A stretch of 64,000 bases of DNA from Candidatus Binatia bacterium. GTDB lineage: Bacteria; Desulfobacterota; Binatia; UBA12015. This document shows positions 9,501 to 43,791 of the stretch, piece by piece; the first letter of the stretch is position 1; each line of letters starts with the position of its first letter. The position numbers and the translations under genes are program-made. The notes beneath the pieces were generated by a model. That model worked only from the letters and a program-made list of their open reading frames with translations, had not been told where the DNA came from and made no database searches. Where the stretch lies: positions 311,064 through 375,063 of the forward strand of contig JAXLXO010000004.1 in NCBI GenBank assembly GCA_046327915.1, in the 5' to 3' direction.

Positions 9501-11633
9501 TCAGGACGACGGGGCCCCGGCGACCGGCGCGCGAACATCGACCTCCAGCTCCGCGGTCAGCGGTACGACGGGATCGGATCCCTGTCCGGCGCGGAGCGCC
9601 AGCACGCGTCGTCCGACGCTCCCGGGCGGGGCGATCCACGCCGCGAGCGACACCGTGGCGCCGCGCGGAACGTCGTCCGGCAGCGAGATCCGGCGCCACG
9701 CGGCCGGGGGTGTGCCGTCGGTCGGCCGCCACGCGTACCAGACCGCGAACCGTCGATCCGGATCGACCGCCGTCCCGGGCCACGTGACTTCGCCGTCGTT
9801 GCGCAGCTCGAGGACGACGCGCCCCTCGCGATGCGGTGACAGCGCTCCCTGCACCGAGGCCTTCAGCACACCCCGCGGCGTGTCGATCGTGGCAACCGGC
9901 GCCCCGGTGACGGTTCGCGCGCGGTCCTGCAGGCCGGGACAGGCGCCGCTTCGCGGCAGCGTGACCCGGTAGAGATCGTCGCCCCGATCGCCGTCCGCAC
10001 CGGGAAAGGTCTTCTCCAGCTGCACGCCGGGAGCATCGCGCCACGCGTTGCGACGTGCGGCCGGCGCGTCGTGCACGAGGATCCATCCGGGGTCGGCGCA
10101 GTCGACGAGAATCCGGAGCGACTCGGGCGACGGCAGCTGCCGCGCGTGCTCGAGCAGGAACGCGCTGCCCGGCGGCATGTATCCGGTGTAGCCGTTCACC
10201 AACGGCAACCAGTGATGGGTGCTTGCGACCATCGCGCGCGCATCGGCGAGGCGGAAGACGCGATCCGTCGGCAGCTCGAGCAGCGGACGCCCGCCACCGT
10301 TCTCCGCGAGCCAGCGATGCGCGGGCGACAGCTGCGCGCGCGTCGCGACCGGGTAGGCCGCGAGATGCCACGGCGACGCGACAACCCAGCTGGCGCAGAC
10401 GAGGACCCCGACGGCGCCCGCGACGACGCGCGCCGCTCCCGGACGCCACGCGGCGAGCCTGCGCTCCGCATCCGCGACGCCGTACGCCGCGAGCGCGCTG
10501 AGCGCGAAGCTCGTCACGATCGCGAAGCGCACGGGCACGCGCAGGCTGCGAAAGCCCGGCACCAGCGCGTACAGCCACGCGTACGGTGCTAACCAGCCGC
10601 CGAGGAATCCTTCCGGTCCCGCAGCGAGCAGCACCCCGGCCGCGGCGGCGAGCACGAGAAACGCGATGCGCAGCCGGTCGCGCTCGCACCGGGAGCCGCG
10701 CGGCACGAGCCGCGACGACAGGAAGGCGATCGCGAGCAGCGCCGTGCCCCAGCCGACGAAGCCGCCGAGGACGTTCATCGGCCTGCCGACCTCTTCCCAC
10801 GGCGTCGCGAGCGACCGCGTGAGCTCGGTGGTGAGTCCGCCGGACGCGCGCGCGAGCACGTACGGGACCGACACGGGCACGACCACCAGCAGCGGACCCG
10901 CGACCGCGATCGCGAGCGCGCGCCACGCGCCCGCTGCGCGAGGCCGCGTCCACTCGACCACGATCCACGTGACGACGAACGACCCGACGACGACATACGC
11001 GGCGTAGCCGAGGTAGTACGAGCACAGCACCTGCACCGCGAGCAGCGCCGCGGTCGCGATCGCCGTGCCCGTGCTTCCGGTCGCAACGGCACGATCCAGC
11101 CCCCACGCGATCATCGGCAGATACTGCACCTGCATCAGATGCGCGCGGCCCAGATCGCCGCGCCACGGCGCGAAGCCGAACGCGAATCCGGCCGCCCACG
11201 CCGCCGCGGTGCTGCCGGTCCAGCGTCGCGCGAGAAAGTGCATCGCGAGCGCCGACAGCACGAAGCTCGCCAGCGTCAGGACGTTCAGGGCGAGAATCGC
11301 GTCGTCGGTCGCGAGCCAGACCGGCAGGAAGATCGGCATGTCTCCGAGCAGATGCTCGGACCTCGCCACCACGTGGGGCGATGGATGCAGGACGTTGCCG
11401 TCGAACAGCGTCAGCGGCGCGGACGTGAGCGCCCGCCCCACCCACGACAGAATCCAGATCACCAGGTGGAGATCGTTCAGCAGACTCGGCGACGACGTGA
11501 CGACGTGGTCGGCGGCGACCGACGCGAGCGGCCAGGTGAACCAGACCGCCGCCGCCGTGTAGACCAGCAGCGGGAGCCCCGCATCGCGCAGCAGGGTGCG
11601 AGTCGTGCGCGCAGTGCCCGGCGGCCGGCTCAC
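9501..11633 (-). CDS. large polytopic membrane protein, possible YfhO/PMT-like glycosyltransferase
   Basis: 710 aa. About 12 predicted TM helices in the N-terminal 430 aa, then a soluble C-terminal domain. No catalytic motif recognised, so the function is a guess. Confidence 0.45.
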   Translation of the reverse strand: MSRPPGTARTTRTLLRDAGLPLLVYTAAAVWFTWPLASVAADHVVTSSPSLLNDLHLVIWILSWVGRALTSAPLTLFDGNVLHPSPHVVARSEHLLGDMPIFLPVWLATDDAILALNVLTLASFVLSALAMHFLARRWTGSTAAAWAAGFAFGFAPWRGDLGRAHLMQVQYLPMIAWGLDRAVATGSTGTAIATAALLAVQVLCSYYLGYAAYVVVGSFVVTWIVVEWTRPRAAGAWRALAIAVAGPLLVVVPVSVPYVLARASGGLTTELTRSLATPWEEVGRPMNVLGGFVGWGTALLAIAFLSSRLVPRGSRCERDRLRIAFLVLAAAAGVLLAAGPEGFLGGWLAPYAWLYALVPGFRSLRVPVRFAIVTSFALSALAAYGVADAERRLAAWRPGAARVVAGAVGVLVCASWVVASPWHLAAYPVATRAQLSPAHRWLAENGGGRPLLELPTDRVFRLADARAMVASTHHWLPLVNGYTGYMPPGSAFLLEHARQLPSPESLRILVDCADPGWILVHDAPAARRNAWRDAPGVQLEKTFPGADGDRGDDLYRVTLPRSGACPGLQDRARTVTGAPVATIDTPRGVLKASVQGALSPHREGRVVLELRNDGEVTWPGTAVDPDRRFAVWYAWRPTDGTPPAAWRRISLPDDVPRGATVSLAAWIAPPGSVGRRVLALRAGQGSDPVVPLTAELEVDVRAPVAGAPSS

Positions 11634-12381: not shown

Positions 12382-13323
12382 ATGCAGGCGCACAGGATCA
12401 CCGCGTCGTGGGAGCAAGTTCCAGCGGAGACGGCGACGGCCGTGTCGCTCGCCCTGCCCGACTTCGCGGGTGCGGTCAACGCCGAGCTGGTCCGCTTTGC
12501 CGGACCGCAGGTCTCGTCGGTGGTCGCGTCACCGGCGGCACACAGCATCAGCTTCGTGCAGGGCGGCCGCGGACGGATCGCATGGCACGTCGGCGGCCGG
12601 ACGCGCGAGGCCGCGATCGCGAAGGGCGGCTACTCGATCGTGCCGAGCTCCGCGGACGACAACCTCTTCGTCGTCGACGGCGCGCTGGAGTCGCTCCACC
12701 TCGGCATCGATCCGGGATTTCTCGCGAGCGTCGTCGAGCGCGAGCTCGACCGCTCCACATCGGGGCTGGAGCTCCGTCCCGACGTACGGCGGCGCGAGCC
12801 CGCGGTGCTCGCCTTCGGAACGGCACTCGCGAACGAGCTGCGAAATCCCGGCATCGGCTCGCCGCTCTACGTCGACGCGCTGGTGATCGGGCTCGCGGTG
12901 CAGCTCGCACGCGAGCACTCGAACCTCACGGTCGGCGAAGCGCCTCGCGTCCGCCCGCTGTCCGCGCACGACCTGCAGACCGCGACGGATTACATCCGCG
13001 ACAACCTCGCGACCGACGTGCGGCTCGGCGCGATCGCGAGCGTCGTCGGGCTGTCGCCGCACCACTTCGCGAAGAGCTTCAAGGCGGCGACGGGCCAGGC
13101 ACCGCACGCGTACGTGATCGAGCAGCGGGTCGCGTCGGCGCGCCGCATGCTCGCCGACGACGAGGCGAGCATCGCCGACATCGCCTACCGCGTCGGCTTC
13201 TCGAGCCAGAGCCACCTGACGACGACCTTCCGCCGGCTCTGCGGCGTCACGCCCCAGGAGTACCGCCGCCGCAGCGGCGCCTGCGCGAAGTCGCAGCACG
13301 GCGCGCGCGACCGGGTCGCCTGA
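12382..13323 (+). CDS. AraC-family transcriptional regulator
   Basis: C-terminal HTH 'IASVVGLSPHHFAKSFKAATGQAPHAYVIEQRVASARRML…IAYRVGFSSQSHLTTTFRRLCGVTPQEYRR'. Confidence 0.8.
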   Translation: MQAHRITASWEQVPAETATAVSLALPDFAGAVNAELVRFAGPQVSSVVASPAAHSISFVQGGRGRIAWHVGGRTREAAIAKGGYSIVPSSADDNLFVVDGALESLHLGIDPGFLASVVERELDRSTSGLELRPDVRRREPAVLAFGTALANELRNPGIGSPLYVDALVIGLAVQLAREHSNLTVGEAPRVRPLSAHDLQTATDYIRDNLATDVRLGAIASVVGLSPHHFAKSFKAATGQAPHAYVIEQRVASARRMLADDEASIADIAYRVGFSSQSHLTTTFRRLCGVTPQEYRRRSGACAKSQHGARDRVA

Positions 13324-13369: not shown

Positions 13370-13846
13370 CTAGAACCAGCTCGTGTCCGTCATCGCGCCC
13401 GGCACCAGTCGCGCGGTGACGTCGTGCGCCTCGTCGCGCACCATGATGTCCTTGCCGTCGGTCCAGACGCGCACGCGCTGCTTCGGGTAGCCGTCGATGT
13501 CGAGCTTCAGGTAGCCCTCGCCGTCGACCGCGTACGTGCCGGTCTTGCGCGTCCTCTGGTCGTCGATGAAGCGCACGGTCGCGGTGAAGCTGCCGTCGCT
13601 GCCGAAGCGGACGCCGACGCCGCTGATCACGAAGAAGAGCGCGCCGCCGGCGTCGAGCGTGTGCCACGCCGTGCCGGGAAGCGCGGGCAGCACGTTCGAC
13701 TCCTGTGCGACGGCGGTGGCGTCCATCGCCGGCGCGCGCAGCACCGCCGCGCACACGAGCGCGAAAAGCACGATCCGTGCAGCCGTCCTCGCGGCGGCGC
13801 GCGCCGGTCGATCGACGGCAGGGAAGGAAGTCCGGTGGTCGGTCAT
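13370..13846 (-). CDS. hypothetical small secreted protein (last gene of nar supercluster)
   Basis: 158 aa. N-terminal hydrophobic signal ([19 protein letters not shown]) and normal composition. ATGA overlap with the TehA-like gene. The Arg-rich 5' extension of ORF 13370..14725 was rejected. Confidence 0.5.
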
Positions 13847-14907
13847 TGCGCGCTCCTCGCGTGCTGTCGAAGGATGGTGTTCAGCATTCCCGCGAACGTC
13901 ACCAGCCACGCCGCGAGCGCCACGAAGACGAACACGCGCGGGATCGCGAGCAGGAACGGCTCGTCGATCGCGTGCGCGAGCTTGAACGTGCACGTGGTGT
14001 ACATGCCGAGCGGGAAGACCATGCCCCAGTAGCCGGGCTCGTACGCGAGCGGGTAACGCCGCACGACGTGGCGCCAGACGCCCATCACGAACAGCATCGG
14101 GATCCACCACGTCGCCGTCGCCCAGAACAGCAGCGTGAGTCCCTTCAGGAAGGGCAGCAGCGACGCGAGCAGCGGATCGGACGCCGCGTTGCCGATCACG
14201 ATCGCGCCGGCCAGCGTCGAGATCGCCATCGCGCCGGTGTCGATCCAGTACGCGGGGCCGGCGTCGGCCGGCTCGAAGCGCAGGAACATGTAGCGGAAGA
14301 AGATCAGCCCGATGATCCAGACGTAGAGCATGCCGCCCGCGAGCCACAGGGCCAGCGTCAGGAACAGCACCTGGTGCTCGTATCCGGGGAAACGGTCGTA
14401 CACCTGGCCGCCGAGCAGGGACACTCCCTGCGTCGCGACGACCGCGACCAGCCATCCGCCGTTGAGCCCGCGCTCGATCGGCGGCTTCTGCTCGTCCACG
14501 GTGAGCAGGGCCAGCACGCCGTAGAGCAGCAGCACCCAGAGCACCAGCGCGAGCAGCCAGAGCGCGGTCGCGATCTCCGGCACGTGCACCACGATCAGCA
14601 GCTGCGCACCGAGCACGCACGTCCCGGCGACGATCGTGAAGTAGCCGACGCCGCGCGCGTGATTGCCGAGGTCCGCGCGCACCGCCGCCGGATACCGCAC
14701 GAGGCGCGCGAGGTAGAGCACCCACAGCACGACGTAGGCGATCACGTTGACGGCGAGCAGCGCGACCGCGACCGGCACGAAGCCGAGCAGCTTGCTCGCG
14801 ATCGAGACGATCCCGGTCGCCATGACCAGCGCGAAGTACGCGGGGTTGAGCGTCTCGAGCCCGCTCGCGGCGGCCTGTGCCTTGCCGCGATCGGCGGCGG
14901 CAGCCAT
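13843..14907 (-). CDS. TehA/TDT-family (SLAC1-like) anion channel/transporter
   Basis: 354 aa, about 10 TM helices, very hydrophobic, with a typical TDT-family helix pattern (…[13 protein letters not shown]…, …[11 protein letters not shown]…, …[13 protein letters not shown]…). The start codon is 5 nt after the cytochrome c stop. Confidence 0.65.
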
Positions 14908-14912
14908 CGCGC

Positions 14913-15281
14913 TCACGGCGTCGCTCCTGCCGTCCTGCGGAATGCTTCGAGGTACGACAGCAGCGCGTCGAGCTGCTCGCCGGACAGCGTGCCGCCGTAC
15001 GCCATCATCGCCGAGCCCGGGACGCCGTTCAGGATCGCGCCGCGCAGCCGCGCGGCATCCGCGTCGCGCCAGAATCCGGCCGATGCGAAGTCGGGCGGCC
15101 TCGGGATCATGGTCACGCCGGCCGGACCGTCGCCTCGTCCACCGTCGCCGTGGCAGAACGCGCACCGGCTGCGGAACAGATCGCCGCCGAGCGCGAGCTG
15201 CGCCGGATCGGCGGTCTGCGCGTCTGCGGTGTGCGCGACGGCCGACACGACCAGCAGCGCCAGTGCGACGCGGCGGATCAC
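14913..15281 (-). CDS. class I mono-haem cytochrome c
   Basis: 'CAFCHG' haem-binding motif, distal Met region 'GSAMMAYGG', signal peptide. GTG start with a GTGA overlap on the ppiC-like stop. Confidence 0.7.
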
Positions 15282-16093
15282 GAACACCCCTGCGTGCCGC
15301 ACTGGCACGACGACTCGCCGTGCGCGGCGTCGACCGTGCGTGCTTCGGCGTCCAGACCCTCGACGTCCGCGGCGGCCACCAGATCGCGCACGAATTCCGC
15401 GGCCGCGGCGCGCCAGCGGCGGTCGAGCAGCCGCTCGCGCGCGAGACCGCGCGCCTCGCGCCACTCGAGCGGACGTCCCGGCGCACGCTCGTCGAGGCGC
15501 ACCACGTGGTAGCCGAAGCGCGTCCGCACCGGCGCGGGACAGACGTCGCCAGGCGCGAGGTGCTGCAGCACCGCCGCGAACTCCGGAACCGTGTCGCGCG
15601 CCGTCACCTGCCCGAGGCTGCCGCCGCTCTGCGCCGACGAGCAGCCGGAACGCTCGCGCGCGAGGTCGGCGAAGCGCGACGGATCGCGCGCCAGCTCCGC
15701 GATGCACTCGGCCGCGGCGCTGCACGCGCGCTCGAGCGCCGCGGAATCCGACGGCGGCGCGAGGAAGAGGATGTGCGACGCCTCGAACAGGTCGGGCGTG
15801 CGGTCGAGCTCGGGATGGCTGTCGTGCTCGGCGCGGCAGTCCGACTCGCTCGGCTCGTCGACCGCGACGTGGCGCACGACCAGCTCGTCGATCGCGCGCT
15901 GGCAGGCGCTCTCGTCGCGCTCGTCCGCGGCGACCAGCCCTTCGCGCGCGGCCGTCTGGCGCAGCACCTCGCGCACCACCAGAGCGCGCGCCGCGCGCAG
16001 CTCCGCGTCCTCGCGGCTCGCCGCGCGATGGTACTGCATCTCGCGCAGCACCTCGTCGTCGCCGATCGCGACCGCGTTCACGCGGAGCGCCAT
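15278..16093 (-). CDS. PpiC/parvulin-type peptidyl-prolyl isomerase (NifM-like)
   Basis: C-terminal rotamase domain '…[55 protein letters not shown]'. Overlaps the narI 3' end by 16 nt. Confidence 0.65.
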
Positions 16094-16812
16094 CCCGGTC
16101 CCTTCCGCGTCCGCGCACGATACGGCTCGCGCACGATCTGGTAGCGGCGGCCGAGGTACCACACCGGCGCGCTCCAGATGTGGATCAGCCGCGTGAACGG
16201 CACCAGCAGCACCACCGTCAAGCCGAGGACGATGTGCAGCTTGTAGACCAGCGGGATCGGCAGCAGCAGCTCCCACGCGTCGGCGCGGAACGTCACCAGG
16301 CGCTGCGCCCAGAACGCGGCGTGAAGCAGCGTCTGTCCCGACACGTGGTCCGCCCACGAGGCCGGCAGCGTCGCGAGCCCGATCGCCAGCTGCACCCAGA
16401 TGATCACGAGGATCAGCACGTCGGACCAGCTGCTCGAGCGCAGCACGCGCGCGTCGAAGAGCCTTCGGTGCAGCAGGATCGTCGTGCCGATGAAGCAGAT
16501 GGTGCCCGAGATGCCGCCGGCGAAGACCTCGAGGACGGCGTGCTCCTGCACGGTGAAGCCGACGCGCGTGTAGAGCGACACCGGCGTCAGCATGCCGGCG
16601 ACGTGGCCGAGCACCAGCGCGATCGCGGCGACGTGGAAGATGTTGCTGCCCCACACCAGCTGCCGCTTGCGCAGCATCTCGCTCGACCCGCTGCGCCACG
16701 TGTACTGCTCGCGCTCGAAGCGCAGCCAGCTGCCGACGAGGAACACCGTCACGCAGACGTACGGGTAGATGCCGAACAGGAAGCGCTGCAGCAGCTCGCT
16801 CGCGACGCTCAC
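16078..16812 (-). CDS. narI: respiratory nitrate reductase gamma subunit
   Basis: 244 aa, 5 TM helices, conserved 'FLFGIYPYV' N-terminus and His ligands. GTG start overlapping the narJ stop (GTGA). Confidence 0.85.
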   Translation of the reverse strand: MSVASELLQRFLFGIYPYVCVTVFLVGSWLRFEREQYTWRSGSSEMLRKRQLVWGSNIFHVAAIALVLGHVAGMLTPVSLYTRVGFTVQEHAVLEVFAGGISGTICFIGTTILLHRRLFDARVLRSSSWSDVLILVIIWVQLAIGLATLPASWADHVSGQTLLHAAFWAQRLVTFRADAWELLLPIPLVYKLHIVLGLTVVLLVPFTRLIHIWSAPVWYLGRRYQIVREPYRARTRKGPGWRSA

Positions 16813-17480
16813 GAGCACCTCCCCGCGCGCGTCGCGGCCGCAGCGTCGGCCGCTCCCGCGCTGGTGAAGTCGACCACCGGCTCCTCCCACTCGCGGTCGA
16901 GGCGCTCGAGCTCGCTTTCCTCGGTCGCGTCGACGGCCTGCTCGACGTCGCGCAGCGCCGCGCGATCGACGGCGTCCCCCGCGAGATCGATCAGCGCCTC
17001 GAGAACCGCCGCGTACGGCGACAGGCGCAGCTCGAGCTTGCGCCGCAGCGCCGCGAGGATCGGCGCCGCGTCGTCGAGCAGCGGGCGCGCGACGCTCTCC
17101 GGCGCGAGCGACAGGAACTCGCACAGCAGCGGCAGGTAGTCGGGCAGCTCGGTGGTCGACGGCTCGAGGCCGTTCTCGACGTACAGGCGGCGCAGGTCGA
17201 CCATCGCCTGGCCGCGCTCGCGCGCCTCGCCGTGCACGTGCTCGAAGAGGTGCAGCGAGCACGCGCGGCCGTGATCGAAGGTCGCGACCCACGCCTCCTC
17301 GAGGTCGAGCAGGGAGCCTTCGCGGAATCCCGCGAGGAGTCGCGCGACGCCGTCGCGCGCGTGCGCGGAGAGCCGCGGCTCCGCGGCGACGCGACGCTCG
17401 ATCTCGTCGACCGCGGCGAGCAGGTCGCTGCTCGGGTAGAGCAGCAGCGCGCCCAGCACCTTGCAGCTCGCGAGGCTCAC
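16809..17480 (-). CDS. narJ: nitrate reductase molybdenum cofactor assembly chaperone
   Basis: 'MSLASCKVLGALLLYPSSDLL…' is a NarJ/TorD-family N-terminus. GTG start overlapping the narH stop (GTGA). Confidence 0.8.
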   Translation of the reverse strand: MSLASCKVLGALLLYPSSDLLAAVDEIERRVAAEPRLSAHARDGVARLLAGFREGSLLDLEEAWVATFDHGRACSLHLFEHVHGEARERGQAMVDLRRLYVENGLEPSTTELPDYLPLLCEFLSLAPESVARPLLDDAAPILAALRRKLELRLSPYAAVLEALIDLAGDAVDRAALRDVEQAVDATEESELERLDREWEEPVVDFTSAGAADAAAATRAGRCS

Positions 17481-19000
17481 ATGACCTCGCTCGGCGTCCG
17501 GCGCCCGGCGCCGCCGCCGAAGAAGACGCTGCCGCGCGAGTCGGGCGCGTCGCAGCCGTTGCCGAAGGTGAAGCCGCACGCGCCGCGCAGCTCGTAGGCG
17601 TCCTCCGCGAGCTCGCGATGGCTGGTCGGGATCACGAAGCGGTCCTCGTAGTTCGCGATCGCGAGCAGGCGGTACATCTCCTCGATCTGCTGCCGCGACA
17701 GCCCGACGCGCGCGAGTACCTCGTCGTTGTCGCGTCCCTCGACGTGGCGGTCGCGCATGAACACCCGCATCGCGAACATGCGCTCGAGGGCGCGCACGAT
17801 CGCGGGCTCGTCGCCGGCCGAGAGCAGGTTCGCGAGATAGCGCACCGGGATGCGCAGCTTGCGGACGTCGGGCAGCGCGCCGTCGAAGCCGATCGCGCCC
17901 GACTCCGCGGACGCCTGGATCGGGCTCAGCGGCGGGCAGTACCAGACCATCGGCAGCGTCCGGTACTCGGGGTGCAGCGGGAACGCGATGCCCCACTCGA
18001 CGGCGAGCTTCCACACCGGCGAGCGCTGCGCCGACTCGATCCACGCCTCGGGAACGCCCGCGTCGCGCGCCGCCTGCTGCACGTCGGGATCGTTCGGGTC
18101 GAGGAACATCTCGAGCTGGGCCGCGTGCAGGTCGCGCTCGTCCGGGGTCGCCGCCGCCTGCTCGATGCGGTCGGCGTCGTAGAGCATGACGCCGAGATAG
18201 CGGATGCGTCCGACGCAGGTCTCCGAGCACACCGTGGGCAGCCCGGACTCGATGCGCGGGTAGCAGAAGATGCACTTCTCGGCCTTGCCCGAGCGCCAGT
18301 TGTAGTAGATTTTCTTGTATGGACAGCCCGACAGGCACATGCGCCAGCCGCGGCACTTGTCCTGGTCGATGAGGACGATGCCGTCCTCCTCGCGCTTGTA
18401 GATCGAGCCCGACGGACACGACGCGACGCAGGTCGGGTTCAGGCAGTGCTCGCACAGGCGCGGCAGGTACATCATGAACGTGTTCTCGAACTGCGCGACC
18501 ATGTCCTTCTCGACGCCTTCGAGGTTGGCGTCGCGACTGCGGTCGGCGAACGCGCCGCCGAGGTCGTCCTCCCAGTTCGCGCTCCACGTCACGCGCTCCA
18601 TGTGCTTGCCGGTCAGCAGCGAGATCGGGCGCGCGACCGGCACGTCCTCCGACTCCGGCGCGGACTGCAGCGTGCCGTAGTCGAAGGTGTACGGCTCGTA
18701 GTAGTCGTCCACTTCGGGCATGTGCGGGTTCGCGAAGATCTGCGCGAGCACGCGGAAGCGTCCGCCGAGACGCGGCACGAGCTTGCCGTCGGCGCGCCGC
18801 ACCCAGCCGCCGCGCCAGCGGCCCTGGTTCTCCCACTCCTTCGGGTAGCCGACGCCGGGCTTGGTCTCGACGTTGTTGAACCACGCGTACTGCACGCCGT
18901 CGCGGTTGGTCCACACGTTCTTGCAGGTCACCGAGCAGGTGTGGCAGCCGATGCACTTGTCGAGGTTCAGCACCATCATGATCTGGGCACGAACCTTCAT
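17477..19000 (-). CDS. narH: respiratory nitrate reductase beta subunit
   Basis: 508 aa, with four FeS cysteine clusters (CIGCHTCSVTC, CEHCLNPTCVASC, CRGWRMCLSGC, CIFCYPR). ATGA overlap with narG. Confidence 0.9.
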   Translation of the reverse strand: MKVRAQIMMVLNLDKCIGCHTCSVTCKNVWTNRDGVQYAWFNNVETKPGVGYPKEWENQGRWRGGWVRRADGKLVPRLGGRFRVLAQIFANPHMPEVDDYYEPYTFDYGTLQSAPESEDVPVARPISLLTGKHMERVTWSANWEDDLGGAFADRSRDANLEGVEKDMVAQFENTFMMYLPRLCEHCLNPTCVASCPSGSIYKREEDGIVLIDQDKCRGWRMCLSGCPYKKIYYNWRSGKAEKCIFCYPRIESGLPTVCSETCVGRIRYLGVMLYDADRIEQAAATPDERDLHAAQLEMFLDPNDPDVQQAARDAGVPEAWIESAQRSPVWKLAVEWGIAFPLHPEYRTLPMVWYCPPLSPIQASAESGAIGFDGALPDVRKLRIPVRYLANLLSAGDEPAIVRALERMFAMRVFMRDRHVEGRDNDEVLARVGLSRQQIEEMYRLLAIANYEDRFVIPTSHRELAEDAYELRGACGFTFGNGCDAPDSRGSVFFGGGAGRRTPSEVM

Positions 19001-22000
19001 CTTGCTGCTCCCTGCGCCTCGTCGCGCGCCGGTCCGCTGCCCCAGCGCGGCTCGCCGAGCTTGCGGATGACGACGGTCTCGTCGCGGTTCGCGCCGATCG
19101 TTCCGTAGTAGTTCCAGCCGTAGCTCAGGTGCGCGTAGCCGCCGATCATGTGCGTCGGCTTCGGGATCACGCGCGTCACCGAGTTGTGGATGCCGCGCGT
19201 TCCGGTCGCCTGCGTCTGCGGCGTGGCCACCAGCTTCTCCTGCGCGTGGTACATCATGCAGGTGCCGCGCATGACGCGCTGGCTGACGATCGCGCGCGCC
19301 GCGACCGCGCCGTTCACGTTCACCGCCTCGATCCAGTCGTTGTCGGCGATTCCCGCCTCGCGCGCCTCGTCCTCGTTGAGCCAGATCACGGGGCCGCCGC
19401 GCGCCAGCGTGAGCATCAGCAGGTTCTCGGTGAACGAGCTGTGGATCGACCACTTCTGGTGCGGCGTCAGGAAGTTCAGCACCAGCGTGCCGGGACCGCG
19501 CAGCTTCGGATCGCGCAGGTCGTCGAGAGCCAGCGTGTCGAGCGGCGGACGATAGGTCGCGAGCGCCTCGCCGAAGGCGCGCATCCACAGGTGGTCCTGG
19601 TAGAGCTCCTGCCGTCCGGACAGCGTGCGCCACGGGATCAGCTCGTGCACGTTGGTGTAGAACGCGGTGTAGCTGACGGTCTCGGAGTCGACGCCGCTCC
19701 AGATCGGCGACGTGATCACTTTTCTCGGCTGGGCCACGAGGTCGGCGAAGCGGATCACCTCCTCGCTGCGCGACGCCGCGAGGTGCCGGTGCTGCCGTCC
19801 CGTCTGGCGCTCGACCGACGCCCACGCGCGCACCGCGACCTGGCCGTTGGTCTCGGGCGACAGCGTCAGCACGGTCTCGCAGGCCTCGACGTCGCTGACG
19901 ATGCGCGGACGGTCGCGCGCGATCTCGTCGCCGCTGTCGCCGTTGAGCGCGCGCAGCATCGCGACCTCGTCGGTCGCCGGCCACGCGAAGCCCTTGGCGC
20001 CGATGCCGGGCTTGTCGACCAGCGGGCCGAGCGCCGTGAAGCGCGCGTACGTGTCCGGGTAGTGGCGCTCGACCACCGCGACGCCGGGCATGGTCCTGCC
20101 GGGCACGGGGTCGCACTCGCCCTTCTTCCAGTCCTTGACGTCGTACGGCTGCGCGAGCTCGCCGGGCGCGTCGTGCTGCACCGGTACGAGCACCGCGTCG
20201 TGCTCGACGCCGAGATGACCCGCGGTGCACTCGGAGAAGCGCCGCGCGATCCCCTTGAAGATCTCCCAGTCGGTGCGCGCCTCCCACACCGGATCGACCG
20301 CGGCGCCGAGCGGGTGCACGAACGGATGCAGGTCCGTCGAGCTGAGGTCGTTCTTCTCGTACCAGGTCGCCGCCGGCAGGACGACGTCGGAGTACATGCA
20401 CGTGCTCGACATGCGGAAGTCGAGCGTGACGAGAAGGTCGAGCTTGCCCTCGGGCGCGTCGCTCTCCCACTCGATCTCGCGCGGCGGCTCGAGGCCGCGC
20501 TCGACGACGTCGCGCGCCTGCACCGCGTTCTTCGCGCCGAGCAGGTGCTTCAGGAAGTACTCGTGACCCTTCGCGCTCGAGCCGAGCAGGTTCGCGCGCC
20601 ACACGAAGAGCATGCGCGGGAAGCTGGTCGGATGGTCGGGGCGCTCGCTCGCGAGGCGCAGCGCGCCCGACTTCAGCGCGTCCGCGACGTGCGCGCCCGG
20701 CGTCGCGCCCGAAGCCGCGATGTCACGCCCCACCTGCAGCGGATTCTGCGCGAGCTGCGGCGACGTCGGCAGCCAGCCCATGCGCTCCGCGCGCACGTTG
20801 AAGTCGATCAGGCTGCCGCCCCAGTCGCCGTCGGGTGCGGTCGGCGACAGCATCTCCGCCGGCGTCACCGTCTCGTAGCGGAACTGGTCGGTGTGCGCGT
20901 AGAAGTACGAGGTCGTGTTCATCTGGCGCGGCGGACGCGTCCAGTCGAGCGCGAACGCGAGCGTCGACCAGCCGACCAGCGGACGGATCTTCTCCTGCCC
21001 GACGTAGTGCGCCCAGCCGCCGCCGGGCTTGCCGACACAGCCGCACAGCACGAGCAGGTTGATGATCGCCCGATACGTCGTGTCGGTGTGGTACGCCTGA
21101 TTGACGCCGCAGCCGATGATGACCTTGGCGCGGCCATCGGTCTTCTCGGCGCTGTGCGCGAACTCGCGTGCGAGGTTGATCGCGATGCGGCGGTCGACGC
21201 CGGTGATCGCCTCCTGCCACGCCGGCGTGAACGGACGATCGGCGTCGTCGTACGTCGCCTCGTCGCCGGGCTCGAGTCCGCGCGGGACGCCGTAGCTCGC
21301 CAGCATCAGGTCGAGCACCGTCGCGACCGGAACCTCGCCGTCGCGCAGCTTCAGGCGACGCACCGGAACGCTGCGCTCGACCACGTGATCGGGCGCCGAC
21401 GCCTCGAAGCGCGGGAACGCAACGTTGGCGAAGCCGTCGCGGCGCTCCGCGACGCTCAGCGCGAGCTCGACCTCGTGGCCGTCGCGCGCGTCGCGCTGCT
21501 CGAGGTTCCATTTCTCCCCCGGGCTCCAGCGGAAGCCGATCGAGCCGTTCGGCACCACGACGTCGCCGCTCTTCGCGTCGAGGCCGACCGTCTTCCAGTC
21601 CGGGTGCTCGTCCTGCGCGAGCGCGCCGTCGAAGTCGGCCGCGCGCAGCATTCGGCCGGGAACCCAGCGATCCCCTTGCCGGTCGAGACGCACCAGCATC
21701 GGCAGGTCGGAGAAGCGGCGCGCGTAGTCGACGAAGTACGGCACCTGCCGGTCGACCCAGAACTCCTTCAGCACGACGTGCCCGACCGCGAGCGCGAGCG
21801 CCGCGTCGGTGCGCTGCCGCGGCCGCACCCACAGGTCGGCGAACTTCGCCGCCTCGTTGAAGTCCGGTGAGACGACGACGGTCTTGGTGCCCTTGTAACG
21901 AGCCTCGACGTAGAAGTGCGCGTCGGGCGTGCGCGTCTGCGGCACGTTCGAGCCCCACAGCACGAGGAACGCGGCGTCGTACCAGGCGGCGCTCTCGGGC

Positions 22001-22710
22001 ACGTCGGTCTGCTCGCCCCAGGTCATCGGCGAGCTCGGCGGCAGGTCGCAGTACCAGTCGTAGAAGCTGAGGCAGGTGCCGCCGATCAGCGACAGGAAGC
22101 GCGTCCCGGCTGCGAACGACACCATCGAGAACGCGGGGATCGGCGTGAAGCCCGCGACGCGGTCCGGACCCCACTTCTCGATCGTGTGCACGGCGGCGGC
22201 GGCGATCATCTCGTTCGCCTCCTGCCACGACACGCGCACGAAGCCGCCGCGTCCGCGCACGCGCTTGTAGGACGCCGCGCGCTCCGGATCGTCGGCGATG
22301 CTGCGCCACGCCTCGACCGGATCCATCGCCGCGCGCGCCGCGCGCCACAGCTCGACCAGACGGCGGCGCACCAGCGGATACTTGACGCGGTTTCCGCTGT
22401 ACAGGTACCAGGACGCGCTCGCTCCGCGCGGACAGCCGCGCGGCTCGTGGTTCGGCAGGTCCGCCCGCGTGCGCGGGTAGTCGGTCGCCTGCATCTCCCA
22501 GGTGACGAGCCCGTTCTTGACGAACACCCGCCAGCTGCACGAGCCGGTGCAGTTCACGCCGTGCGTCGAGCGCACGATCTTGTCGTGGTCCCAGCGGTTC
22601 CGGTAGCCGTCCTCCCAGCTGCGGTCCTCGCGCGTGACGACGCCGAGATCGCCGGCGAACGTGCCGACGTTCTTGCGGAAGAACAGCAGACGGTCGAGCA
22701 GCAGGCTCAC
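18997..22710 (-). CDS. narG: respiratory nitrate reductase alpha subunit
   Basis: 1237 aa. N-terminus 'MSLLLDRLLFFRKNVGTFAGD…WEDGYRNRWDHDKIVRSTHGVNCTGSCSW' matches the NarG FeS0 H-x3-C-x3-C motif. Collinear with NarG throughout. Confidence 0.9.
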   Translation of the reverse strand: MSLLLDRLLFFRKNVGTFAGDLGVVTREDRSWEDGYRNRWDHDKIVRSTHGVNCTGSCSWRVFVKNGLVTWEMQATDYPRTRADLPNHEPRGCPRGASASWYLYSGNRVKYPLVRRRLVELWRAARAAMDPVEAWRSIADDPERAASYKRVRGRGGFVRVSWQEANEMIAAAAVHTIEKWGPDRVAGFTPIPAFSMVSFAAGTRFLSLIGGTCLSFYDWYCDLPPSSPMTWGEQTDVPESAAWYDAAFLVLWGSNVPQTRTPDAHFYVEARYKGTKTVVVSPDFNEAAKFADLWVRPRQRTDAALALAVGHVVLKEFWVDRQVPYFVDYARRFSDLPMLVRLDRQGDRWVPGRMLRAADFDGALAQDEHPDWKTVGLDAKSGDVVVPNGSIGFRWSPGEKWNLEQRDARDGHEVELALSVAERRDGFANVAFPRFEASAPDHVVERSVPVRRLKLRDGEVPVATVLDLMLASYGVPRGLEPGDEATYDDADRPFTPAWQEAITGVDRRIAINLAREFAHSAEKTDGRAKVIIGCGVNQAYHTDTTYRAIINLLVLCGCVGKPGGGWAHYVGQEKIRPLVGWSTLAFALDWTRPPRQMNTTSYFYAHTDQFRYETVTPAEMLSPTAPDGDWGGSLIDFNVRAERMGWLPTSPQLAQNPLQVGRDIAASGATPGAHVADALKSGALRLASERPDHPTSFPRMLFVWRANLLGSSAKGHEYFLKHLLGAKNAVQARDVVERGLEPPREIEWESDAPEGKLDLLVTLDFRMSSTCMYSDVVLPAATWYEKNDLSSTDLHPFVHPLGAAVDPVWEARTDWEIFKGIARRFSECTAGHLGVEHDAVLVPVQHDAPGELAQPYDVKDWKKGECDPVPGRTMPGVAVVERHYPDTYARFTALGPLVDKPGIGAKGFAWPATDEVAMLRALNGDSGDEIARDRPRIVSDVEACETVLTLSPETNGQVAVRAWASVERQTGRQHRHLAASRSEEVIRFADLVAQPRKVITSPIWSGVDSETVSYTAFYTNVHELIPWRTLSGRQELYQDHLWMRAFGEALATYRPPLDTLALDDLRDPKLRGPGTLVLNFLTPHQKWSIHSSFTENLLMLTLARGGPVIWLNEDEAREAGIADNDWIEAVNVNGAVAARAIVSQRVMRGTCMMYHAQEKLVATPQTQATGTRGIHNSVTRVIPKPTHMIGGYAHLSYGWNYYGTIGANRDETVVIRKLGEPRWGSGPARDEAQGAAR

Positions 22711-22838: not shown

Positions 22839-25172
22839 TCACGCCGGAGTCTTCGTCGTGTCGCCGTACGTGCGGGACGAGAACGGCTCGTTGGTCGCTC
22901 CCGTCAGCTCCTCGAGCCGGCTGCGCAGCCAGCGCGGCGGCTCGCCGAAGCTCAGCCTCCGCAGCGCGACCGGCGACGACTTGAAGTGCGGCTGCTTGCT
23001 GACAGCATCGCGCGCGTACCACGTGTGCGTGTTGGCCGACTGGTCGGCGCCGCCGTAGTGGAACGGCGCGAACACCTCGCCACGGCGCACCGTGTCGACC
23101 ACCATCGCGATCGCCTCCGAGCGTCCGTGCGGCGAACGGATCTCGACCGCGTCGCCGAGCTCGATGCCGAGACCCGCCGCGTCCTCGGGGTGGATCTCCA
23201 CGTACACGGCCGGGGCGTGCGCGTTCAGCACGTCGGAGCGCGCCGTCTTGGTGCGGGTGTGGAAGTGGTAGACGAGCCGGCCGGTGTTGAGCAGCAGCGG
23301 ATACTCGTCGGAGACCGGATTCGGGTGCGCGTGCCAGTGCACCGGGCGAAGGATCGCCTTGCCGGCCGGATCGGCGCGCCGGTACTCCGCCGGCGACGTG
23401 CCGCGCCCGGTGTAGAAGTCGACGCCGAAGCTCTCGCAGGCGTCCGCGTCGGTCCAGAAGTGCAGATCCTCGTAGAGCCTCTCCGCCCCGCGCGGGTACT
23501 TCTCGTTGCAGGGCCAGCGCACCGCGCCCATCTCGAGGATCAGCTCGTACGTCATGCCGGAGTAGTCGCAGCCGCGGCCCTTCGAGACCTTGCGCCACTC
23601 GTCGAACGCCGCGCGCGGCTCCTGGTACGGCAGCAGCGACTTGCCGTCGCGGTCCTTGAAGCCGAGGCGGTTCGCGATCTCGACGAAGACGTCGAAGTCG
23701 CTGCGCGCCTCCCCCGGCGGGTCCACCGCCTTGAGCAGCAGATTGACGCTGCGATCCGCGTTGGTGACGCAGCCGCTCTTCTCGCCCCACATCGCCGCGG
23801 GGAAGTAGATGTCGGCGAAGTCGACCGTCTCGGCGTCGACGAACGGATCCTGCACGACGAGGAAGAGCTTGTTCAGGATCGCCGCCGTCCGGTTGCGGTC
23901 GGGCACGCTGACGATCGGATTGGTTCCGATCACCCACATGAACTCGATCTCGCCGCGCTCGGCCATCTCGAGCATGGTGAGGATGTCCTTCGGGTCCTCC
24001 GGCCGGAAGCGGTCGAAGTCGATGTTCCAGATCTCGCACAGCTCGCGCATCTGCGGCTCGCTGTGCGGATTCCGGTACGCGGGATACGAGCCGCCGGCTC
24101 CGGTCTCGCGGTTGTTCATCGCGGACGGCTGGCCCGCCATGAGCAGCGGACCGGTGCCCGGCTTGCCGATGGCGCCGGTCAGCAGGTGGACGACGTTGAT
24201 CAGCGACGACGCCGCGGTCGCGCCGATGCTCTGGTAGAAGCCCATCAGCGCGGTCGACACCATCTTCGGCGTCGTTCCGATCCACTCCGCCGCGGTCTCC
24301 AGCTGCGCCTGCGGGATGCCGCAGATCGCGGCGACGCGGTCGGGCGGATACTCGCGCGCCACGGCCGCGACGTCGTCGAACCCGATCGTGTGCTGCGCGA
24401 CGAAGTCACGGTCGACCTGGCCGCGCGCGATCAGCAGGTGGATGATCCCGTTCATCAGCGCGACGTTGGTTCCCACCTTCACCTGCAGATGAAGGTCGGC
24501 GCCCTGCCGAACCGTCGGGGTGGTGCGCGGATCGACCACGATGATCCGTCCGCCGTTCTTCTGCCGCGCCGACAGCATGCGCTCCCAGAGCACCGTCTGC
24601 GTCTCGGCGACGTTGTGTCCGTAGAGGCAGAGCAGGTCGGCCTGGTCGACGTCGGCATAGGATGCGACCGGCCCGTCCGAGCCGAAGGTCGCCGTCAGCG
24701 CCGTCGCCGCGCTCGACGTGCAGAGCCTGGTGTTGCCGTCGATGTTCGACGACTGCAGCCCGCCGCGCCACATCTTCGCCAGCGCGTAGAACTCCTCGAG
24801 CATCAGCTGGCCGGAGCTGTAGCAGGCGAGATTCTGGTGCCCGGACGCCCACGCCGCGCGAAACTTCTCCACGAAGAAGTCCATCGCCTCGGACCAGCCG
24901 ACCGGCTGCAGCGGGTCGGACTTCCGGCGGCGGATCATCGGGGTCGTGCCGCGCCGCTTCGCACCGTTGGCGATCCAGCAGTGCTCGCCCTTCGGGCCGA
25001 GATGTCCGGCGTTGACGGGATGGCTAGTCGTGCCGCGAACGCCGACGATCGCGCGGTCCTTCACCGCGATCTCCAGGCCGCAGCCGTTCGAGCACAGCAG
25101 ACAGGCGGAGTGAACCCAGGCGTCGGGCTCTCCCTGGATGCCGACGTTCACGTCTCTTCGAGGCTGCATCAC
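22839..25172 (-). CDS. cytoplasmic MopB-family nitrate reductase catalytic subunit (assimilatory NasA/NarB-type)
   Basis: 777 aa, no Tat signal. N-terminal 4Fe-4S 'CLLCSNGCG'. NasA/NarB-like segments 'FMWVIGTNP', 'NTGRLVYHFHTRTKT' and 'FAPFHYGG'. Confidence 0.7.
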   Translation of the reverse strand: MMQPRRDVNVGIQGEPDAWVHSACLLCSNGCGLEIAVKDRAIVGVRGTTSHPVNAGHLGPKGEHCWIANGAKRRGTTPMIRRRKSDPLQPVGWSEAMDFFVEKFRAAWASGHQNLACYSSGQLMLEEFYALAKMWRGGLQSSNIDGNTRLCTSSAATALTATFGSDGPVASYADVDQADLLCLYGHNVAETQTVLWERMLSARQKNGGRIIVVDPRTTPTVRQGADLHLQVKVGTNVALMNGIIHLLIARGQVDRDFVAQHTIGFDDVAAVAREYPPDRVAAICGIPQAQLETAAEWIGTTPKMVSTALMGFYQSIGATAASSLINVVHLLTGAIGKPGTGPLLMAGQPSAMNNRETGAGGSYPAYRNPHSEPQMRELCEIWNIDFDRFRPEDPKDILTMLEMAERGEIEFMWVIGTNPIVSVPDRNRTAAILNKLFLVVQDPFVDAETVDFADIYFPAAMWGEKSGCVTNADRSVNLLLKAVDPPGEARSDFDVFVEIANRLGFKDRDGKSLLPYQEPRAAFDEWRKVSKGRGCDYSGMTYELILEMGAVRWPCNEKYPRGAERLYEDLHFWTDADACESFGVDFYTGRGTSPAEYRRADPAGKAILRPVHWHAHPNPVSDEYPLLLNTGRLVYHFHTRTKTARSDVLNAHAPAVYVEIHPEDAAGLGIELGDAVEIRSPHGRSEAIAMVVDTVRRGEVFAPFHYGGADQSANTHTWYARDAVSKQPHFKSSPVALRRLSFGEPPRWLRSRLEELTGATNEPFSSRTYGDTTKTPA

Positions 25173-25413: not shown

Positions 25414-26766
25414 ATGGCCAGCGCATCCGAGGCGTCAAGCAGTGCTGCGGCGGCCCGCGAGGAAGAGCGGACCGAGCTGGCGGCGGATCGCCGGGATCTC
25501 GTCCGGCTCGCTCTCGTCGCGATTCCCGCCGGAGCGCTGACCGGCCTCCTGGGTGCCGCCTTCCGCATGGTGCTCGACGCCGCCGGGACGTGGCGTCTCG
25601 ATCTCGTGCGGTGGTCGAGCACCCTCGGTGCGTGGGGCGTGGCCGTGCCGATCGTCGTCGTCGCGGCATGCGCGGCGATCGCACGCGCGCTCGTGCGGAT
25701 CGCGCCGGTGGCCGGCGGCAGCGGCGTGCAGCACGTCGAGGCCGTCGCGCGCGGACAGGCCGAGCCGGCACCACCCGTGGTGCTGCCCGTCAAGTTCATC
25801 GGAGGATCGCTCGCGCTGGGCTCGGGCCTCGCGCTCGGACGCGAAGGACCGACGGTGCAGATGGGCGCGGTCGTCGGCGAGGCGCTCGCGCAGTGGGCCC
25901 GGCTGCCGATCGAGGACGTGCGCCGCATGTCCACCGCGGTCGCGGGCGCCGGCCTCGGCGTGGCGTTCTCGGCGCCGCTCGGCGGCGCGACGTTCGCGTT
26001 CGAGGAGGTCGCGCGGCGCTTCGATCTGCGGCTCGTCGTCGCGACCCTGCTGTCCGGCGCCACGGCGGCCGCGGTCGCGTGGTCGCTGATCGGCAATGCG
26101 CCCGACTTCGCGGTCCGTCCGCCGCCGCCGCCCGCGTGGCACGTCGCCGTCCCCGTACTCGTGTTCGGCCTGCTGCTCGGCCTCGCGGGCGTGGCCTACA
26201 ACAGGCTCGTGGTCGCGCTGCTCGATGCGGCCGACCGCTGGCCGCGCGTGCCGGCCGAGGCGCGTGCCGCGCTCGTCGGCGCGCTCTTCGGCCTGCTCCT
26301 CTGGGTCGAGCCGTCGCTGGTGGGCGGCGGCGACGCCGTCAATCAACGGATCCTCGACGGCGCGGTGCCGATCGCCACGATCGGCACGATCGCCGTGGCG
26401 CGCTGGCTGCTCGGCCCCGTCAGCTACGCTCCTGGCGTTCCGGGCGGCCTGTTCGCGCCGCTGCTGCTGGTCGGGTCGGCCGCCGGAGCGCTGTTCGCGT
26501 CGGCGGGGAACCACCTCGTGCCGGCGCTCGGGCTCGACCCGACGGCCTTCGCCATCGTCGGGATGGCGACGTTCTTCGCGGCCGTCGTGCGGGCGCCGCT
26601 CACCGGCATCGTGCTCATCGTCGAGATGACCGCGACGACGACCCAGGTGGTGCCGATGCTCGCGGCATCGACGGCCGCGGTGATCGCGGCGACGCTCCTG
26701 CGTGGCGAGCCGGTCTACGACACGCTGCGCCTGCGCATGCTGAGCCGCACGACCGACCGCCGCTGA
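25414..26766 (+). CDS. ClC-family anion channel/H+ antiporter
   Basis: 'GSGVQ', 'GREGP', 'GGLFAP' selectivity-filter-like motifs and about 10-12 TM helices. Start chosen at MASASE (ORF 25138.. has an Arg-rich junk 5' part). Divergent from the nasA-like gene. Confidence 0.75.
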   Translation: MASASEASSSAAAAREEERTELAADRRDLVRLALVAIPAGALTGLLGAAFRMVLDAAGTWRLDLVRWSSTLGAWGVAVPIVVVAACAAIARALVRIAPVAGGSGVQHVEAVARGQAEPAPPVVLPVKFIGGSLALGSGLALGREGPTVQMGAVVGEALAQWARLPIEDVRRMSTAVAGAGLGVAFSAPLGGATFAFEEVARRFDLRLVVATLLSGATAAAVAWSLIGNAPDFAVRPPPPPAWHVAVPVLVFGLLLGLAGVAYNRLVVALLDAADRWPRVPAEARAALVGALFGLLLWVEPSLVGGGDAVNQRILDGAVPIATIGTIAVARWLLGPVSYAPGVPGGLFAPLLLVGSAAGALFASAGNHLVPALGLDPTAFAIVGMATFFAAVVRAPLTGIVLIVEMTATTTQVVPMLAASTAAVIAATLLRGEPVYDTLRLRMLSRTTDRR

Positions 26767-42628: not shown

Positions 42629-43791
42629 CGCGCCTCCCGCCGGCTGCGCAGCGCGTCCGCGACCGCGACGTACGCGGGCTTCGCCTGGTACTCCTCGTCG
42701 AAGAGCAGCGGCTCGCCCTTGCGCCGCACGAACTGCTCGATGCTGGTCGGATAGCGGTCGGTGAAGAGCCACACCGTCAGCCCCGTGCACGCCGGCACCG
42801 CGGCGCAGGCCGCGCTCACGTCGGAATAGACGGCGCGCTGCCGCTCGAGACGCGCGGCGCGATCGCCGTCGAAGCGCCAGGTGTGGACGTTCAGCTCGGT
42901 GATCTCGACGTCGATGCCGAGCGTCGCGAAGCGGCGCAGCGTCGCCTCGACCTCGTCCCGCGTCGCGACGTCGGCGTCGCCGGGCGGCGCGTAGGGCAGG
43001 AACCACATGTGGCCCTGCAGCCCGACGCCGTGCAGCGGCACGCCCGCGTCGAGCAGGTCGCGCGCGAGCTGGAAGTAGCGGTCCTGCTTGACGCCGGGCT
43101 TGAGCTCGAGGAACTCGTTCAGGAAGAGCTTCGCGTCCGGATCGGCCTCGTGTGCGACGCGGAACGCGTCCGCGACGTGGCCGGGGCCGAGCTTCTGCAG
43201 GAACGCCGAGTCGCGCAGCCCGCCGGTGCCGCCGTCCTCGCCGAACGCGGTGAGCGGCTCGTTGACGACGTCCCAGCGCGTGACGCGGCCCCGATATCGT
43301 CCCATCACGGTGCGGATGTGATCGGCGGTCGCCGCGCGCAGCGTGTCCGCGTCCATCTGCGCGACGTACGCCGGGTTCGGCGGATCCGACGCGCCGCCCC
43401 AGACCAGCGTGTGTCCGCGCACGCGCATGCCGTGCGCCTGCGCGAAGTCGACGATCGCGTCGGCCCCTGAGAAGTCCCAGCGGTCGGGCTCGGGATGGAT
43501 GCGCCCCCACTTCATCGCCGTGTACGGCGTGATCGAGTCGAACTCGCGCGCCAGCACCTCGCCGTAGCGCGCGTCGCCGGACGACGGCGTCAGGTACTCG
43601 TCGTGCGCCGCGGTGCCGATCGAGAGGCCGCTTCCGGCGGCGACGTCGCGCAGCCCTTCCCCGCCGCCGGAGCCGGCGTCACCGCAGCCCGCGCCGCCGG
43701 GCGACGCCGCGAGGAGTCCGGAAAGAGCCATGCGGCACAGCAACGCGCGTCCCGGCGCCGCGCGCAAGCCGGATGTCGATCGCTCGCGCAT
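42625..43791 (-). CDS. glycoside hydrolase family 10 endo-beta-1,4-xylanase-like
   Basis: 'HTLVWG', 'WDVVNEP' (acid/base Glu), 'ITELNV' (nucleophile Glu). Signal/lipoprotein N-terminus (…GGAGCGD). Start could be the internal M 20 codons downstream. Confidence 0.8.
   Translation of the reverse strand: MRERSTSGLRAAPGRALLCRMALSGLLAASPGGAGCGDAGSGGGEGLRDVAAGSGLSIGTAAHDEYLTPSSGDARYGEVLAREFDSITPYTAMKWGRIHPEPDRWDFSGADAIVDFAQAHGMRVRGHTLVWGGASDPPNPAYVAQMDADTLRAATADHIRTVMGRYRGRVTRWDVVNEPLTAFGEDGGTGGLRDSAFLQKLGPGHVADAFRVAHEADPDAKLFLNEFLELKPGVKQDRYFQLARDLLDAGVPLHGVGLQGHMWFLPYAPPGDADVATRDEVEATLRRFATLGIDVEITELNVHTWRFDGDRAARLERQRAVYSDVSAACAAVPACTGLTVWLFTDRYPTSIEQFVRRKGEPLLFDEEYQAKPAYVAVADALRSRREAR

Follow-up and report, generated by a model that had tools for sequence, protein, structure and literature searches.

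A TDT/SLAC1-family gene in a respiratory nar operon of Candidatus Binatia and its predicted role in nitrite and nitrate passage

NarGHI reduces nitrate inside the cell, so that nitrate must enter and nitrite must leave. For transport of these ions, textbooks and annotation pipelines recognise NarK-type proteins of the major facilitator superfamily (MFS), NirC and ABC importers. Plant SLAC1/SLAH channels also conduct nitrate. Here we describe a gene of the SLAC1/TDT family at the end of a narGHJI operon in a 64,000-nt stretch of contig JAXLXO010000004.1 from a Candidatus Binatia bacterium, an uncultured soil organism; we call this whole stretch the window. The product, referred to below as the TDT protein, is probably a pore for nitrite and nitrate serving nitrate reductases with a cytoplasm-facing active site, as read from its family and gene context.

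Several described systems come close. SLAH3 is termed a nitrate channel in the title of PMC8154061, and yeast Ssu1 exports nitrate and nitrite (Cabrera 2014, cited in PMC8456426). For E. coli tehA, a binding site has been predicted for NsrR, a repressor that responds to nitrite and NO (PMC5320621). TDT-family genes of Nitrobacter are listed in PMC12815253, citing Starkenburg 2008, as presumed nitrite/nitrate transporters for the cytoplasmic NXR. A 2026 study of nitrite-oxidiser transporters considers only NarK, NirC and NrtABC. An initial annotation of the window, made from its letters, knew of no description of the combination of a TehA/SLAC1-like gene with NarGHI. Full-text literature searches turned up no account of narGHJI operons with a TehA/SLAC1-type gene, and to that extent the claim stands. 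The idea is not wholly new, however, because Nitrobacter genome papers already list TDT transporters as presumed carriers of these ions. Both the fold and the kind of function are known; what is new is the bacterial setting, which is widespread and uncharacterised, and we do not report a new category.

The TDT gene, its family and its fold

The window is 72% GC. Raw open reading frame (ORF) lists are uninformative in it, and genes were delimited by GC content at third codon positions (GC3). The gene in question is the following:

13843–14916, minus strand: gene for a putative anion pore of the TDT/SLAC1 family (PF03595, AlphaFold2 (AF2) fold, GC3 0.95, GTGA junction)

Second-position GC in this frame is 0.44, and switches of the GC3 frame bound the gene at ~14900–14910 and ~13843. 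Along the minus strand such frame changes fall at ~22710, 19000, 17480, 16810, 16090, 15290, 14910 and 13843, from which a tight minus-strand gene series follows. The TDT/SLAC1-like gene that the initial annotation placed at 13843–14907 is real and lies on the minus strand, by its GC3 frame and a full-length match to PF03595.

The protein has 357 aa if read from a GTG at 14916 and 354 aa from an ATG at 14907. The ATG is placed 5 nt past the stop codon of the preceding cytochrome c gene (14913–14915), and the 5-nt gap first described is correct for that start. The GTG is nevertheless the better start: AGGAG lies 7 nt 5' of it, it overlaps the cytochrome c stop as GTGA, and gene callers chose it for an identical 357-aa protein on an independent short contig (L088). 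From this junction the TDT gene is predicted to be translationally coupled to the end of the series narG-narH-narJ-narI-PPIase-cytochrome c, where PPIase is a peptidyl-prolyl isomerase.

PF03595 (SLAC1/TDT) is the sole Pfam match of the protein, with an E-value of 5.1e-49 and 167.6 bits against a cut-off of 27.9. The match covers profile positions 2–331 of 331 and residues 20–342. An AF2 model built on an alignment of the clade (pLDDT 87.4, pTM 0.88) has ten long helices and no soluble domains; helices 1 to 10 extend from residue 22 to residue 353 of the 354. When the model was compared with the PDB by Foldseek, the top 24 matches were all SLAC1, SLAH or TehA, with TM-scores of 0.64–0.80 at 14–16% identity. 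Profile and modelled fold together place the protein in the SLAC1/TDT superfamily, and on both counts the first assignment held. Sequence searches of the PDB gave another picture: phmmer with the TDT protein returned 0 matches, and a profile of 36 clade sequences found no TehA or SLAC1, only chance matches to DAHP synthases. The score against TIGR00816 (tdt, the TehA/Mae1 subfamily) was 97.3 bits, below the cut-off of 237.25 for subfamily membership, and a very long branch separates the clade from E. coli TehA in a neighbour-joining tree. The protein belongs to a deep branch distinct from TehA/Mae1.

The gating residue was sought through its context in PDB sequences, which is LWAFSFGL around F262 of H. 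influenzae TehA and WWSYTFPM around F450 of AtSLAC1. The clade profile aligns a 12-residue stretch in register with these, setting W294 on W258/W446 and F298 on F262/F450, and F298-P299 is invariant in the 36 clade sequences. Other invariant residues are H83, R85, K141, R205, R279 and H280. Local profile matches and motif register tentatively identify F298 as the equivalent of the gating phenylalanine on helix 9, for which the initial annotation had proposed a check in a structural model. Mean conservation is 0.77–0.89 for helices 1, 3, 5, 7 and 9, which line the pore in TehA, versus 0.58–0.63 for helices 2, 4 and 10.

Conserved gene neighbourhoods

Eighty loci were fetched from species-representative genomes, at 48–65% identity to the window protein, and linkage was counted on 81 non-redundant loci from other species (48–70% identity). 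We screened them by tblastn with the window proteins and by annotation-free clustering of all neighbouring ORFs. The TDT gene adjoins narG, narH, narJ or narI in 24/81 loci, and in 20 of the 24 it follows narI, or a NarK-like MFS gene, on the same strand. In 36/81 it stands at the end of a second, NasC-like operon. Linkage to nitrate reductases is thereby present in ~74% of loci and recurs in roughly ten phyla, bearing out the co-occurrence with narG that had been proposed as a check. By our own estimate, the chance that a random gene lies within 7 kb of a single nar locus in a ~5-Mb genome is ~0.3%.

The three closest relatives with usable context are of the L001, L003 and L089-L091 types. 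In L001 the order is CLC exchanger, narGHJI, TDT, and in L003 it is narI, cytochrome c, TDT. In L089-L091 narGHJ is followed by a NarI::cytochrome c fusion, TDT and then a nosZ cluster. The fusion genes are:

L089, 8952–10004: NarI::cytochrome c fusion, 350 aa
L090, 1505–2557: NarI::cytochrome c fusion, 350 aa
L091, 1381–2433: NarI::cytochrome c fusion, 350 aa

Among cultured hosts, which also include Ciceribacter thiooxidans, Mesorhizobium sp. Mes31 carries the TDT gene divergent from narK-narGHJ. M. loti plasmid pML2037 has a probably decayed TDT copy among NnrS, ric, mog and anaerobic ubiquinone genes. Further recurrent neighbours are NarK-like, NirC, RIC, NnrS and nosZ genes; no sulfur, tellurium or dicarboxylate-metabolism genes recur beside TDT in the related loci. 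By tblastn, NarK, NarK-like MFS, NirC and NirB were not detected in the fetched flanks of 11/24 Nar-linked and at least 30 NasC-type loci.

In the neighbour-joining tree the window protein groups with the narI-cytochrome c type, and Nar-linked and NasC-linked members are intermixed. The TDT protein therefore appears to be interchangeable between two enzymes that share a need for nitrate in and nitrite out. By strand, coupled junction and conserved linkage, the TDT gene is a component of the respiratory nar operon.

The second operon has the order QmoC/NarI-like polytopic protein, NasC-like molybdopterin subunit, DmsB-like protein, membrane-anchored Rieske protein, DUF6755, TDT. The QmoC/NarI-like protein carries C-terminal CxxC pairs, the DmsB-like protein is of the 4x[4Fe-4S] type, and DUF6755 consists of two helices. 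The NasC-like subunit matches NF047855 over its full length at 810 bits and is without a Tat signal. RIC/YtfE (TIGR03652, above cut-off) is often the next gene. These operons contain no nitrite reductase gene, and TDT is their only transporter gene. Examples are:

L084, 5374–11806: second operon
L086, 5157–11119: second operon
L005-L082: ~34 more second operons among these loci

From its subunits, the second operon looks like a membrane-bound, cytoplasm-facing nitrate reductase. We know of no description of this subunit composition.

The clade is large. Against 1.84 billion cluster representatives, its profile recovers at least 929 clusters (50% identity) at E <= 1e-30, and there are thousands of close metagenome homologues, all generically named. 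It spans Acidobacteriota, Planctomycetota including anammox bacteria, Chloroflexota, Myxococcota, Binatota, Pseudomonadota and haloarchaea. Database entries read 'tellurite resistance/C4-dicarboxylate transporter family protein', and NCBIfam is without a model for the clade. In anammox bacteria (L048, L053 and L062, from Candidatus Brocadia; P0337, P0354 and P0371) a clade member of ~50% identity lies beside a response regulator, not a reductase; one such entry is misnamed 'C4-dicarboxylate ABC transporter'.

In some more distant relatives the partner is a molybdoenzyme of a third kind, in which cytochrome b561 is fused to a SUOX-fold molybdenum domain. On Natrinema plasmids it lies directly upstream of a TDT relative of 46% identity, with DUF2249 and ric nearby, and on M. 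loti pML2037 it lies ~4 kb upstream of the TDT relative. Two such genes are:

L095, 8331–9866: cytochrome b561::SUOX-fold fusion
L097, 3912–5645: cytochrome b561::SUOX-fold fusion

The nar operon of the window and its surroundings

The genes around TDT in the window are listed in coordinate order:

12382–13323, plus strand: AraC-family regulator, convergent with the end of the nar-TDT unit
13370–13846, minus strand: 158-aa ORF with a hydrophobic N-terminus, overlapping the TDT stop as ATGA
14913–15284, minus strand: monoheme c-type cytochrome with a signal-like N-terminus, start at 15284 or 15302 (PF13442 3e-11, PF00034 2e-7, CAFCH)
15278–16093, minus strand: PpiC/NifM-like peptidyl-prolyl isomerase (PF00639 9e-20; TIGR02933 nifM 2.7e-13, below cut-off)
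16078–16818, minus strand: narI, gamma subunit (PF02665 1.6e-70)
16809–17480, minus strand: narJ, delta subunit/chaperone (PF02613 6e-15)
17477–19000, minus strand: narH, beta subunit (PF13247, PF14711)
18997–22710, minus strand: narG, alpha subunit of the cytoplasm-facing type (TIGR01580 equivalog, 1909 bits against a cut-off of 1084)
22839–25151, minus strand: NasA/Fdh-like molybdopterin oxidoreductase, 770 aa (PF04879, PF00384, PF01568)
25414–26766, plus strand: ClcA-type CLC H+/Cl- exchanger (PF00654 7e-82), divergent from the nar operon

Profile searches agree with the narGHJI and cytochrome c identities given initially. The N-terminus of NarG is of the usual kind and lacks a functional Tat signal. 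A database entry identical to narH, from a Candidatus Binatia MAG, carries the name nitrate reductase subunit beta. The claim that TDT forms the distal end of the operon holds in part. TDT is the last conserved gene of the nar unit, but the 158-aa ORF overlaps its stop, and the PPIase between narI and cytochrome c had gone unmentioned. The ORF was also called on the independent contig L088; a Pfam search gave no match for it, and tblastn found no homologue in ~90 related loci, leaving it without a counterpart elsewhere. The PPIase likewise has no counterpart in any related locus examined. A homologue of the cytochrome lies between narI and TDT in L003 and is the part fused to NarI in L089-L091. 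Whether separate or fused, this cytochrome c suggests that NarI exchanges electrons with a periplasmic cytochrome c; such exchange would be unusual for NarGHI and is reminiscent of nitrite oxidoreductase clusters.

It is uncertain whether the 770-aa oxidoreductase, a cytoplasmic protein of NasA/NarB/FdhF-like type, is a member of the nar unit. Its gene shares the strand of narG and lies 128 nt upstream of it. Its top NCBIfam matches are Fdh-alpha (472 bits), NasC (404) and NasA (384), all below cut-off; it has no twin-arginine motif and shares 32–37% identity with the NasC-like subunits encoded in the second operon. A NarK fusion was considered for this gene and ruled out, its Pfam profiles being those of a molybdopterin oxidoreductase.

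The CLC protein scores 324 bits against NF003640 (ClcA; cut-off 350) and has the motifs GSGVQ and GREGP. A nitrate-type CLC filter (GPGIP) was ruled out, the CLC protein of the window having Ser at this site (GSGVQ), the chloride type. CLC genes also lie near TDT in L001, L055 and L089/L090, and an association with the TDT/nar unit is possible, if sporadic. A CLC fragment lies near the TDT relative on M. loti pML2037.

In the 64-kb window, tblastn gave no match to E. coli NarK, a NarK-like MFS protein, NirC or NirB, and a Pfam survey of the window agrees. A promoter scan of this 72% GC DNA found no promoter-like site, and no FNR/CRP-type box was found. A terminator scan gave one terminator-like site, inside the TDT gene, a count below chance expectation. 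An AraC-type gene, like the one convergent with the unit, is also seen a few kb upstream in L084/L085. Elsewhere, the window holds a cluster at 38305–46279 that combines four sulfatase genes, a GH10 xylanase and a TetR regulator. It also encodes two proteins resembling pectinacetylesterases and two large YfhO-like membrane proteins (9501–11633 and 31795–34032). These are ordinary polysaccharide-degradation and envelope genes, unrelated to the TDT finding.

Proposed function, alternatives and known systems

We propose that a ten-helix pore of the SLAC1/TehA fold in the inner membrane would carry both the substrate and the product of the reductase. The argument for nitrate and nitrite is that both partner enzymes have cytoplasmic active sites and need nitrate in, and that nitrite has to go out where no nitrite reductase gene is present. 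The minimal role would be nitrite export, driven by the inside-negative membrane potential. The pore would probably also admit nitrate, with the reductase as a sink that keeps internal nitrate scarce. Equal fluxes of nitrate in and nitrite out would cancel electrically, so that a pore could behave as a passive exchanger without mechanical coupling. That RIC, an iron-sulfur repair protein, is often encoded next to TDT agrees with a need to restrict nitrite and NO damage in the cytoplasm.

Several points weigh against this proposal. The ions transported, the direction, and the choice between channel and coupled carrier are all inferred from context, and the role of any clade member is a predicted one, whether as nitrite valve, as route of nitrate entry or as both. 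Against the membrane potential a pure channel has no means of accumulating nitrate, and uptake would require either coupling or fairly high nitrate outside the cell. Neither enzyme is nearby in 21/81 loci. Eight of these 21 have <3 kb of upstream sequence, and several adjoin NirC (L025, L049), a NarK-like MFS gene with MoeA (L012), RIC (L069) or a multihaem cytochrome. About 12 Nar-linked loci also have a NarK-like MFS gene, and three loci have NirC. With NarK-like or NirC genes present in about half of the Nar loci, TDT would add to them and not plainly replace them. A NarK gene may also sit elsewhere on the 392-kb contig of the window or in the rest of the genome. Some relatives at 33–46% identity adjoin the cytochrome b561::SUOX-fold molybdoenzyme. 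As to the pore itself, F298 was placed on the gating phenylalanine by local profile matches with weak scores, an hhalign comparison with two aligned TehA sequences reached 38% probability over helices 1–7 and ended before helix 9, and the pore-lining position of the conserved residues is assumed by analogy with TehA.

The main alternative, which overlaps with the view we favour, is that the protein is a proton-coupled, dedicated nitrate importer of the NarK1 or NasA kind and that nitrite leaves by another route. The TDT family includes coupled carriers, such as the malate/H+ symporter Mae1 (TC 2.A.16), and the inability of a lone channel to concentrate nitrate speaks for coupling. In NasC-type operons, moreover, TDT as sole transporter gene holds the position that a nitrate importer has in nas operons. 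However, a fold with a conserved Phe-Pro gate resembles channels and not alternating-access carriers, the frequent RIC/YtfE gene and the missing nitrite reductase gene of the NasC-type operons point to nitrite stress or export, and ~12 Nar loci already have a NarK-like MFS gene adjacent. We consider this explanation unlikely.

It is also possible to imagine a general valve for anions or toxic oxyanions (chloride, sulfite, tellurite, selenite, chlorite) that accompanies molybdoenzyme operons and balances charge or expels by-products of promiscuous reductases. TehA takes its name from tellurite resistance and Ssu1 from sulfite efflux, CLC exchanger genes are found repeatedly in the neighbourhood, and the relatives beside the b561::SUOX-fold enzyme, on haloarchaeal and rhizobial plasmids, would suit such a role. 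Yet both dominant partners are of nitrate reductase types (a narG equivalog, and an enzyme whose best match is NasC), and the neighbours that recur belong to nitrogen-oxide metabolism, not to that of sulfur or tellurium. A general valve is, in our view, quite improbable.

A Mae1-type C4-dicarboxylate transporter importing electron donors for nitrate respiration is very improbable and was rejected on homology and gene context: the database name that suggests it is a family-level one, TIGR00816 scores 97 bits against a cut-off of 237, dicarboxylate-metabolism genes are not recurrent, and ~74% of loci are nitrate-reductase-linked, so that the Mae1 homology without nitrate linkage that would have spoken against the initial annotation was not what we found. 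Chance adjacency to nar, or hitch-hiking on a mobile island, has some relatives on megaplasmids and the 21 reductase-free loci in its favour but is a negligible prospect given linkage across ~ten phyla to two different reductase operons, mostly on the same strand and with short or overlapping junctions.

Beyond the proposed pore for nitrite and nitrate, a broader view is conceivable, and we hold it tentatively, as somewhat doubtful. The clade may be a third major prokaryotic family of nitrate/nitrite porters, an electrically self-balancing pore, not a coupled antiporter, that could serve cytoplasm-facing nitrate reductases without NarK or NirC. Its commonest partner, the QmoC-like/NasC-like/DmsB-like/Rieske/DUF6755 operon, may encode a membrane-bound complex for nitrate reduction that has so far gone unrecognised. 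Across many uncultured but abundant lineages from soil, sediment and groundwater, gene context links nitrate reductases to this different fold. If the function is as predicted, nitrogen-cycle reconstructions from metagenome-assembled genomes that score nitrate/nitrite transport as missing would need revision. The TehA/SLAC1 fold would finally have a function assigned to it in bacteria, the nitrate channels of plants could be seen in an evolutionary context, and the NasC-like/Rieske operon would become a candidate for a new nitrate reductase. With cultured hosts and simple complementation assays available, the prediction can be tested directly.

Compared with plant SLAC1/SLAH (PDB 7en0, 7wnq, 8j1e, 9m7r), the TDT protein shares the Pfam family, the ten-helix fold (TM-score up to 0.80) and, on helix 9, the Trp-x3-Phe-Pro that holds the gating phenylalanine of SLAC1. 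Identity is 14–16%, with no sequence-level match even by profile. The TDT protein has ~20 residues before helix 1 and ends with helix 10, without the cytosolic N- and C-terminal regulatory domains of SLAC1, whose solved chains have 556–577 aa. With no soluble domains, the phosphorylation-based gating of SLAC1 cannot apply to it. Unlike plant SLAC1, it is bacterial and encoded with a respiratory enzyme. TehA (H. influenzae 3m71; E. coli b1429) has the same fold in 314–330 aa. Its gating phenylalanine is followed by Gly, whereas F298 of the TDT protein is followed by Pro, and in E. coli the partner gene of tehA is tehB and not a nar gene.

The closest functional precedent is given by yeast Ssu1, Ssu2 and Nar1, proteins of the TDT family for sulfite, nitrate and nitrite efflux, with export of nitrate and nitrite demonstrated by experiment (Cabrera 2014, cited in PMC8456426). 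They are eukaryotic, act in detoxification or assimilation and have no link to a respiratory enzyme. In Nitrobacter a TDT protein has likewise been proposed to serve a cytoplasm-facing NarG-type enzyme, but in nitrite oxidisers and as a genome-annotation statement only. The Nitrobacter cluster includes a PPIase (nxrX) and a class I cytochrome c, like the PpiC/NifM-like PPIase and cytochrome c of the window. No Nitrobacter sequence was among the 240 homologue matches listed, including those of a Mesorhizobium-seeded search. The 'new family' of Thermus NarO was considered as a precedent and ruled out, as it is another MFS protein and not TDT.

NarK/NarK2 (MFS) and NirC (FNT) have folds unrelated to TDT. 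The TDT protein falls in neither MFS/NNP nor FNT and resembles NarK and NirC by context alone; they co-occur with it in about half of the Nar-linked loci and were not found in the window. They nevertheless perform the job proposed here, nitrate in and nitrite out for NarGHI, from the same operon neighbourhood, and the TDT protein would be a functional analogue of NarK2 or NirC on a different fold.

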